Below, piece by piece: positions 12,001 through 15,000 of a DNA stretch of 64,000 nucleotides. Source of the stretch: Escherichia coli (lineage in GTDB: Bacteria; Pseudomonadota; Gammaproteobacteria; Enterobacterales; Enterobacteriaceae). The DNA lies in assembly GCF_003018255.1 (NCBI RefSeq), contig NZ_CP027440.1; one strand, given 5' to 3'. The stretch's first letter is position 1. Every line of letters starts with the position of its first letter. The position numbers were made by a program.

Positions 12001-15000
12001 GATTGCCAACAGGCTTGAAAATTTTGGAGGTGATAAATCATGAATGCCTGGCTTATCCCCGATCGCATTGAAGAGCAGTCATGGGCACGACACTACCGGC
12101 AAATTACCCGTGAAGAAAATGAGACTGAACTGGCGGACGACCTGGAAAAAGGTCTGCCCCAGCACCTGTTTGAATCGCTGTGCATCGATAATCTGCAACG
12201 TCATGGAGCCAGCAAAAAAGCCATTGCCCGTGCATTTGATGACGATGTCGATTTTCAGGAACGCATGGCAGAACACATCCGGTACATGGTTGAAACCATT
12301 GCCCGCCACCAGATTTATATTGATTCAGAGGTATAAACCAGATGAGTACAGCTCTCGCAACGCTGGCAGGGAAGCTGGCTGAACGTGTCGGCATGGATTC
12401 TGTCGACCCACAGGAACTGATCACCACTCTTCGCCAGACTGCATTTAAAGGTGATGCCAGCGATGCGCAGTTCATCGCATTGCTGATCGTTGCCAACCAG
12501 TACGGCCTTAATCCATGGACGAAAGAAATTTACGCCTTCCCTGATAAGCAGAACGGCATCGTTCCGGTGGTGGGCGTTGATGGCTGGTCCCGCATTATCA
12601 ACGAAAACCAGCAGTTTGATGGCATGGACTTTGAGCAGAACGATGAATCCTGTACATGTCGGATTTACCGCAAAGACCGTAATCACCCGATCTGCGTTAC
12701 CGAGTGGATGGATGAATGTCGCCGCGCACCATTCAAAACCCGCGAAGGCAGAGAAATCACGGGGCCGTGGCAGTCGCATCCCAAACGGATGTTACGGCAT
12801 AAAGCGATGATTCAGTGTGCCCGTCTGGCCTTCGGATTTGCTGGTATCTATGACAAGGATGAAGCCGAACGCATTGTCGAAAATACCGCATATACTACAG
12901 AACGTCAGCCGGAACGCGACATCACCCCGGTTAACGAAGAGACCATGTCGGAAATTAACGCCCTTCTTACTTCCATGGAAAAAACGTGGGATGACGACCT
13001 CTTGCCGCTCTGTTCTCAGATATTTCGCCGCTACATTCGGGCGTCGTCAGAACTGTCCCAGGCCGAAGCAGAGAAGGTTCTTGGATTCCTGAAACAGAAA
13101 GCCACGGAGCAGAAGGTGGCAGCATGACACCAGAAATTATCCTACAACGTACCGGGATCGACGTGAGAGGTGTCGAGCAGGGAGATTATGCATGGCAAAA
13201 ATTACGGCTCGGGGTCATCACAGCTTCAGAAGTTCACAACGTGATAGCCAAACCCCGCTCCGGAAAGAAATGGCCTGACATGAAAATGTCCTACTTCCAC
13301 ACCCTGCTGGCTGAGGTCTGCACGGGTGTGGCCCCGGAAGTTAACGCCAAAGCCCTGGCATGGGGAAAACAGTACGAGAACGACGCCAGAGCCCTGTTTG
13401 AGTTTACTTCCGGCGTGAATATTACTGAATCCCCGATCATCTATCGCGACGAAAGTATGCGTACCGCCTGCTCTCCGGATGGATTATGCAGTGACGGCAA
13501 CGGCCTTGAGCTGAAATGTCCGTTTACCTCCCGGGATTTCATGAAATTCCGGCTCGGTGGTTTCGAGGCCATAAAATCAGCTTACATGGCCCAGGTGCAA
13601 TTCAGCATGTGGGTGACTCGAAAAGATGCCTGGTACTTCGCCAACTATGACCCGCGCATGAAGCGTGAAGGCCTGCATTATGTCGTGGTCGAGCGGGATG
13701 AAAAATACATGGCTGGTTTTGACGAGATGGTGCCGGAGTTCATCGAAAAAATGGACGAAGCACTGGCTGAAATTAGTTTTGTATTTGGGGAGCAATGGCG
13801 ATAGCCGTAGCAACGAGGTGCAAATGATATGACAGTTAAGGAATGCTACCGGTGTTCGTCCTGATCCAGCGCGGGCAATCTTTCGTCGATGCCAACAACT
13901 ATCCGGTGGAAATCTGCAAGGTAACTCTTACTCAGGTGATCTACCGAAGACTCGACGGCAGAACCCGAGCCACTTCAATTGGTGCATTTAATGAAGAATT
14001 TGAGCGAGTCGACCACAACGAACTACACATGATTAAAGCGGAAATTGAGAAGGAAATGCATATTGCCAGCCTTCGAAAAATGCGACGTACATCAATCAAC
14101 TGACAACCGCCTTCGGGCGGTTTTTAATGGCAAAAATATGGATTCACACAGTATCACCCTCAAAGAGGCCTGTCAGTTTCTCAAGATATCAAGGCCAACA
14201 GCTGTTAACTGGATACGAACGGGCCGACTACAGGCAACACGAAAAAATTCTTCCGGTAAAAGATCACCTTATCTCACAACCCGGCAAGCCTGCATTGCAG
14301 CACTTCATTCACCGCTGCATACTGTCCAGGTGAGCGCGGGTGATGGCATAACAGAGGAAAGAAAATGTCACTCTTCCGCAGAGGTGAAATATGGTACGCC
14401 TCGTACTCGCTCCCGGGCGGGAAGCGAATTAAGGAGTCTCTTGGCACAAAGGACAAGCGGCAAGCTCAGGAGTTGCACGACAAGCGAAAAGCAGAACTCT
14501 GGCGAGTAGACAGACTGGGGGATATGCCAGATGTCACTTTCGAAGAAGCCTGCCTGAGATGGCTTGAGGAAAAAGCCGACAAGAAATCCATCGATTCCGA
14601 TAAATCCAGAATCGCATTCTGGATTGAGCATTTCGAGGGAATAAGGATTAAGGATATATCGGAGGCAATGATCTACTCAGTTATCAGCAAAGCGTATAAC
14701 CGAAAAACAAAGGAGAGATGGAAGTTGCAGGTGGAGGCTGCATTAAGAAAAGGGAAAGAACCACCAGCCTATATACCTAAATCGGTGAGCACGCAAACAA
14801 AAGCAACACACCTGGCAATGATCAAGGCTATTCTGCGCGCCGCAGAGCGAGACTGGAAATGGCTTGAAAAAGCACCTGTAATCAAAATACCTGCCGTAAA
14901 AAACAAACGCGTGAGATGGCTGGAAAAAGAAGAAGCCAGGAGACTCATTGATGCATGTTCTGATCCCCTGAAATCTGTAGTTAAATTTGCACTGGCAACT

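Follow-up and report, generated by a model that had tools for sequence, protein, structure and literature searches.

Is the excisionase-like reading frame that runs far into the integrase gene of an Escherichia coli prophage a damaged gene or a native one? The frame lies on the plus strand at 14138-14509 of a stretch of 64,000 nucleotides from contig NZ_CP027440.1 (RefSeq assembly GCF_003018255.1), hereafter called the window. According to the preliminary description, this xis-like frame comprises 123 codons, compared with about 70 aa for a usual excisionase, and stays open for about 145 bp into int in a different frame, which might reflect either the loss of a stop codon or a genuine long overlap. 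We consider it very probable that the frame is a native xis gene, undamaged and part of a P22-type xis-int module, in a Shiga toxin (Stx) prophage inserted in ynfG, and that the overlap is an ancestral, conserved layout that exists in two lengths.

The xis frame and its product

The open reading frame (ORF) list and the sequence place the xis start at ATG 14138, followed by 123 sense codons and a TAG stop at 14507-14509, and the int gene at 14365-15528 on the same strand, with an ATG at 14365 and a product of 387 amino acids (aa). The DNA common to the two genes, 14365-14509, comprises 145 bp and encodes Xis codons 77-123 with the stop as well as Int codons 1-48; the geometry is kept, with an overlap of either 124 or 145 bp, in all 92 loci compared below. 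The int ATG is offset by 227 nt from that of xis, which puts int in the +2 frame relative to xis, so that the wobble positions of int coincide with the second codon positions of xis. The Shine-Dalgarno sequence of int, GAGGA at 14354-14358, is located within xis codons 73-74. On the position, length and frame of the overlap, the preliminary description was accurate. The int product is a tyrosine integrase of the P22/DLP12 type (Pfam Phage_integrase, E 1.5e-45), named 'site-specific integrase' by the NCBI Prokaryotic Genome Annotation Pipeline (PGAP) and intD in one genome; its length and start offset are those of P22 int.

The chance that a sequencing or assembly error produced an artificial fusion of frames is negligible. 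Such an error is refuted by the presence of the locus at 99% identity or more in 52 E. coli records and six phage records, and of the 123-aa frame at 99-100% identity in 25 IMG/VR contigs; among complete E. coli genomes, dozens of independent ones match the region at 99.5-99.9% identity.

The identification of the frame as an excisionase gene also holds. The predicted protein is 72% identical to P22 Xis (84/116, without gaps, across all 116 residues; BLASTP E 3e-61) and matches the 'excisionase' profile phrog_2907 end to end, with Xis residues 1-116 aligned to profile positions 2-117 of 117 (E 1.1e-43). A tblastn search of 50,697 phage records yielded matches in 162, all but one of which span at least 80% of the 123 residues. 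Judged from these alignments and from its identity to an ORF of phage POCJ13, the window protein is a recombination directionality factor that belongs to the P22 Xis family over its full length. The only Pfam match is HTH_17 at residues 7-36 (36.2 bits, cutoff 27), and the score against TIGR01764 ('excise'), 28.5 bits, is just under the cutoff of 28.8, which accounts for the generic name 'helix-turn-helix domain-containing protein' in the databases. A phmmer search against all PDB chains produced a single, chance-level match (E 0.3, to an unrelated phosphatase) and no solved Xis chain, the lambda type included.

The XisR protein of the Rac prophage, proposed in the preliminary description as a comparator, is similarly annotated as an excisionase and encoded next to the tyrosine integrase of a lambdoid prophage of E. 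coli, but belongs to another, unrelated family (Pfam PF06806, DUF1233; phrog_539). It is 71 aa long, and xisR stops 1 nt short of intR rather than overlapping it at length. No BLASTP alignment between the window Xis and XisR was obtained at E <= 100, and DUF1233, which matches XisR at 6e-21, does not match the window Xis.

An AlphaFold2 (AF2) model of Xis, built from an alignment of 32 sequences, divides the protein into two parts. Residues 1-61 (14138-14320), which include the HTH_17 match, are modeled as a winged-helix DNA-binding domain with the order strand-helix-helix-strand-strand-helix and a predicted local distance difference test score (pLDDT) of 77-90. Residues 62-123 (14321-14506) form a C-terminal extension with conserved motifs, which consists of a low-confidence linker (62-87), a predicted helix (88-101, 14399-14440; pLDDT about 55-68) and a disordered basic end. 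The top PDB fold match, for the N-terminal domain only, is the Xis of mycobacteriophage Pukovnik (4j2n; template modeling score on the target 0.73-0.74, with 51-55 residues aligned at a root mean square deviation of 1.6-2.8 A), and BldC and P2 Cox were matched as well; the E-values of all fold matches are weak, the domain being tiny. By this model, the N-terminal domain of about 60 residues corresponds to an entire 'ordinary' excisionase, and the further 60 or so residues are specific to Xis of the P22 type.

This division bears on the possibility that xis once encoded about 70 aa and now runs on into int by accident, or is decaying as a pseudogene. Most excisionases are 55-80 aa long, and the PDB fold matches, of 51-79 residues, span only the N-terminal half of Xis. 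The stop at codon 117 of P22 xis is absent from the window gene, and PGAP annotates at 14138-14203 only a 22-aa pseudogene ('helix-turn-helix, incomplete, missing C-terminus'), although the 123-aa ORF is intact. This explanation nevertheless appears highly improbable. The phrog_2907 profile itself has 117 positions, and an unannotated ORF of POCJ13 is 100% identical to the window Xis, within a xis-int module that is 99.9% identical. POCJ13 is an inducible phage, the infectious form of which increases about 1000-fold with mitomycin C (PMC4193171). The lengths of the homologues refute the loss of a stop altogether.

Homologues and the switch in Int codon 41

The window and 91 related loci were compared (92 in total, 44 distinct sequences), which come from phages of Escherichia, Salmonella, Shigella, Cronobacter, Proteus, Edwardsiella and Hamiltonella. 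The scan of IMG/VR viral contigs gave close relatives only (85-100% identity), and the diversity was taken from the phage GenBank matches. At all 92 loci, the xis frame is open into int, which is always in the +2 frame; the overlap is 145 bp in 85 of them and 124 bp in the remaining seven. A xis stop upstream of the int start was found at none of the 92 loci and in none of the full-length database relatives. In a collection of 5.8 billion proteins, the homologues are grouped at 115/116 and 122/123 aa and come from at least ten enterobacterial genera, including Salmonella, Citrobacter, Cronobacter, Serratia, Pantoea, Edwardsiella, Hafnia, Yersinia and Xenorhabdus. The length that had been taken as abnormal is therefore one of the two usual ones, and of the two possibilities raised initially, the genuine long overlap stands, whereas the lost stop does not, given homologues of the same length.

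The short form, with an overlap of 124 bp, is represented by the xis genes of P22 (116 aa, by RefSeq annotation), ENT47670 (116 aa), SfII (116 aa from the conserved ATG), and HK446 and SfX (115 aa each). The long form of the window recurs, with the 145-bp overlap, in gp24 of Salmonella phage epsilon34, annotated as 'Excisionase' (123 aa), and in P40 of Hamiltonella phage APSE-1, a 'putative excisionase' that comprises 122 aa when counted from the conserved ATG. Both proteins end in ...GE, followed by a TAG or TAA stop at Int Val/Ile48, and are, respectively, 75% and 45-46% identical to the window Xis. Homologues with the same extended C-terminus, the finding that the preliminary description itself named as evidence of a native form, thus exist, and the 122/123-aa form is found even in APSE-1 and a Proteus phage, both as distant as 45-46% identity. 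The same frame is present but unannotated in phage Turner, Proteus phage vB_BPM-V3 and Edwardsiella phage Edno5.

Among the known systems, Salmonella phage P22 (Xis accession NP_059585) is similar to the window in the distance of 227 nt between the xis and int starts, the relation of the frames, the N-terminal HTH_17 domain and the tail motifs. It differs in that its xis stops seven codons earlier (124-bp overlap), as its Int has Leu at residue 41 (CTG, which with the next A gives TGA) rather than Arg (CGA); in that P22 integrates beside a tRNA gene, whereas the window phage is inserted in ynfG; and in that P22 xis has a GGAG Shine-Dalgarno sequence and directly follows eaC, whereas a hairpin with a T-run precedes the window gene. 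A literature search found no text that states the overlap of P22 xis and int, and the precedent rests on the RefSeq annotation of P22. The same kind of overlap is present in xisD/intD of the DLP12 prophage of strain K-12, where the xisD remnant (locus L094, 2359-2580) encodes a tail of the long form. Unlike the complete window copy, this remnant is a true pseudogene, having lost the N-terminal half that binds DNA; it retains ...YLTTRQACIAAL... overlapping intD and directly follows a fragment of an exo gene.

Lambda Xis is likewise a directionality factor encoded 5' of int on the pL transcript, with a small winged-helix domain and a gene that overlaps the int start. Lambda Xis is 72 aa long, the overlap with int is about 20 bp, and the C-terminal tail of the protein contacts the N-terminal domain of Int. 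Xis of the window type has about 50 extra residues and an overlap of 124-145 bp, and the likeness to lambda Xis is at the level of the fold only.

Nucleotide comparison of ten lineages traced the two lengths to a one-base switch within 14485-14488, where Int codon 41 (14485-14487) is CGA (Arg) in the window and xis codon 117 is GAA. With Leu41, encoded by CTG or CTA, the first A of the Lys42 codon completes a TGA or TAA in the xis frame, and Xis ends at 115/116 aa; with Arg41 (CGA in the window, CGC or AGA elsewhere), xis is read for seven more codons, up to a TAG or TAA formed by Int Val/Ile48 (GTA or ATA) and the next G or A. Both states are found in distant lineages, the long one in APSE-1 and the Proteus phage and the short one in HK446 and Edno5, so the 123-aa form is a polymorphic native state and not a lesion.

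Some xis genes are mosaic. Proteins P0013 and P0040 are the same over their N-terminal 88 residues and differ in the tail, which is long in the former and short in the latter, and in P0002, a head of the SfII type is joined to a tail of the window type. The N-terminal domain of APSE-1 Xis is 35% identical to that of the window, compared with 60% for the tail, a gap that shows a mosaic exchange of the two halves; across the APSE-1 and Proteus phage proteins, heads are 35-41% and tails 60% identical to those of the window. From the alignments, the recombination joint appears to be near the start of the overlap.

Residues 1-48 of Int, encoded in the overlap, form a three-stranded sheet and most of a helix, that is, an N-terminal domain of the arm-binding type, in an AF2 model of Xis joined by a linker to Int residues 1-75 (paired alignment of 11 sequences). 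Since the overlap encodes the Xis tail together with this domain, and the corresponding surfaces are in mutual contact in lambda, the overlap might conceivably be a device for co-inheritance that permits swaps of the Xis head, as seen in P0013/P0040, P0002 and APSE-1, but never parts the Xis tail from its cognate Int. We put this forward tentatively and think it unlikely to hold. If it did, the Leu41/Arg41 switch would alter Int and add seven residues to Xis in one step.

Selection on the overlap and the Xis tail

For the window sequence alone, the open frame is just mildly unusual. The rest of int contains 20 further stops in the xis frame, and its longest open run is 33 codons, compared with 48 in the overlap; from the stop density, the chance of a run of 48 codons is roughly p~0.06. 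When synonymous int codons were re-drawn, the xis frame was still open in 58% of the trials, so the amino acid sequence of Int is itself largely stop-free in this frame. The re-drawing was set aside as an uninformative test of chance, and conservation across lineages and synonymous rates were used instead; the weight of the case comes from the former.

Synonymous sites of int are constrained within the overlap. When the window was compared with nine relatives, the mismatch at third positions of int was 0.10-0.575 in codons 2-41 and 0.47-0.67 from codon 49 to the end, and it was lower within the overlap in 9/9 pairs. Among codons for the same amino acid, the fraction with a different triplet was likewise reduced within the overlap in each of the nine pairs, with Fisher p<0.05 in five of them and p=0.052 in a sixth. 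When ten diverse sequences were compared in all 45 pairings, the average over a sliding window of 40 codons reached the minimum for the entire gene at codons 2-41 (0.417), about 5 standard deviations (sd) below the divergence outside the overlap (mean 0.605, sd 0.038).

The Xis tail was examined against a null model that keeps the Int sequence of each relative and the background synonymous identity. Tail identity exceeded this Int-only null in 9/9 comparisons; six of these reached P<0.05, and the one with P22 gave P=0.053. The 'stop-free fraction' of the null was not used, being distorted by the parsimony choice of codons (0.00 for two lineages). The tail motifs C77, S80, G86-T87, L98, L102 and T106 are kept in homologues down to 35% identity, and C77, G86, L102 and T106 are invariant in the 32 Xis sequences.

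These results have to be set against the possibility that Xis is native but the overlapped 40-47 residues are neutral, a tolerated by-product of the N-terminal sequence of Int. The outcome of the synonymous re-drawing is in line with such neutrality, and so are the disorder predicted for most of the tail, the lack of a predicted interface with Int, and the results for HK446 and Edno5, all detailed below. A neutral tail would leave unexplained, however, the roughly 5-sd reduction in synonymous divergence, the excess of tail identity over the null in every comparison together with the four invariant residues, and the fixation of stops at two exact sites across all lineages; we regard it as improbable.

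Several observations weigh against the view that the gene is native and its tail is under selection. The pairwise comparisons are not phylogenetically independent, and the one with Turner is inflated by local recombination. For HK446 and Edno5, the two most distant relatives, conservation of the tail is not significantly above the null. The pLDDT of the C-terminal tail in the AF2 model is just 31-68, and the Xis-Int fusion model contains no confident interface (predicted template modeling score 0.28, tail pLDDT 30-54). The production of the 123-aa Xis in the window strain is predicted from the nucleotide sequence. Finally, the interval that separates xis from the DUF4222 gene contains a hairpin, 12 nt ahead of the xis ATG, and this ATG is without a recognizable GGAG Shine-Dalgarno sequence in the window lineage, whereas nine relatives have one.

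Expression signals, prophage context and annotation

The hairpin (14105-14125, plus strand) resembles a terminator, with a GC-rich stem of 7 bp, AACCGCC-UUCG-GGCGGUU, followed by a run of five Ts (-12.7 kcal/mol, z -2.66). It was missed by a scan for consensus terminators and revealed by direct folding; a similar hairpin with a T-run is found 5' of xis in epsilon34 and ENT47670. Together with the missing Shine-Dalgarno sequence, it may make the expression of xis and int dependent on antitermination and keep the translation of Xis low.

A purine-rich GAGG/GGAG motif occupies the Shine-Dalgarno position of int in 10/10 diverse relatives. The overlap might serve mainly translational control: ribosomes that translate xis would cross the int Shine-Dalgarno sequence and AUG and stop 124-145 nt into int, and the resulting coupling or occlusion would determine how much Int is made relative to Xis from pL transcripts. 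This role, doubtful in our judgment, would be compatible with a native, conserved xis. In every relative, the int Shine-Dalgarno sequence and AUG are inside xis and are bracketed by a weak conserved stem, GGTGAT/ATGTCAC (14341-14374), with the former in the loop, the start codon paired and the bases conserved in ten lineages. The RNA structure at the int start was nonetheless rejected as evidence: folding of the single sequence gives z -2.6, but the consensus stem reaches no more than -5.5 kcal/mol and shows almost no covariation, and the paired bases may simply reflect conserved Gly-Asp codons of Xis and Met-Ser codons of Int.

No TTGC-N6-TTGC site of a cII/C1-type promoter for int was found on the plus strand near xis. 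The motif is present on the minus strand at 13810-13823, about 320 nt 5' of xis, where its position resembles that of the C1-activated antisense aI promoter annotated 5' of P22 xis; the window contains seven such motifs, with 6.4 expected by chance.

After induction, an N-antiterminated leftward (pL-type) transcript would read through the 14105-14125 hairpin into xis and int, a scheme drawn in part from P22 Xis. Xis would then bind repeated P-arm sites at the far end of the prophage and bend the DNA, promoting Int-mediated excision and inhibiting re-integration, as expected by analogy with the P22 protein. As Mattis et al. 2008 are cited in PMC7498355, P22 Xis bends DNA strongly and binds the att site, a single operator with a dissociation constant of about 1 uM, and inhibition of re-integration at high concentration was proposed. 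Purifying selection in both frames suggests that the Xis tail is functional, most likely through contact with Int or with neighboring Xis protomers, so that it would recruit Int or stabilize an Xis filament; the contact with Int is suggested by analogy with lambda.

By sequence comparison, the window carries the right ~15.6 kb of a Stx prophage similar to POCJ13 and 75-02-Stx (Diegovirus), inserted in ynfG; the other prophage end, with the P arm, and the stx genes lie outside the part examined. Phage DNA extends ~51 bp past the int stop (15529-15580), to about 15579/15580 as indicated by the ends of the POCJ13 record, and is followed by the 3' part of ynfG (to 16120), the residue of which (15566-16120) PGAP annotates as 'incomplete, missing N-terminus'. 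POCJ13 integrates site-specifically in ynfG/S1742 (PMC4193171), and ynfG is a reported insertion site of Stx1a phage, as in the Stx1a prophage of RM10410 (PMC10562709). Synonymous divergence is also low at the 3' end of int (codons ~340-387, which together with the 51 bp after the stop span 15380-15580; 0.45-0.50 compared with the mean of 0.605), and because the phage/host junction is only ~51 bp past the stop, an arm of the attachment site with binding sites for Int and integration host factor is probably located inside the int coding sequence.

Upstream of xis, the plus strand contains an ORF for a very acidic protein of 682 aa (9995-12043, from the ORF list) with a CxxC...CxxC motif near residue 560. 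It is followed by ORFs of 261 aa (12342-13127) and 226 aa (13124-13804), which by annotation in relatives encode RecT and an exonuclease.

The gap in annotation extends beyond the window: the GenBank records of POCJ13, 75/02 Stx, PhiR5_2 and phiSTEC1589-Stx1c contain no xis coding sequence. This is likely due to the long overlap with int combined with a TIGR01764 score 0.3 bits under the cutoff.

For Xis of the P22 type, the frame is ordinary and already known in kind, so it has little biological weight: annotation of P22 has shown the overlap of xis and int for decades, and the P22 Xis protein was purified and characterized. The locus provides a clean example of measurable constraint in two frames and of a one-base switch with simultaneous effects on two proteins. 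The useful by-product is a correction of the annotation in a medically relevant lineage of Stx1 phages, as pipelines could wrongly score the Stx1 prophages that integrate in ynfG, including POCJ13, 75/02 Stx and those of many Shiga toxin-producing E. coli, as lacking an excisionase and hence 'grounded'.

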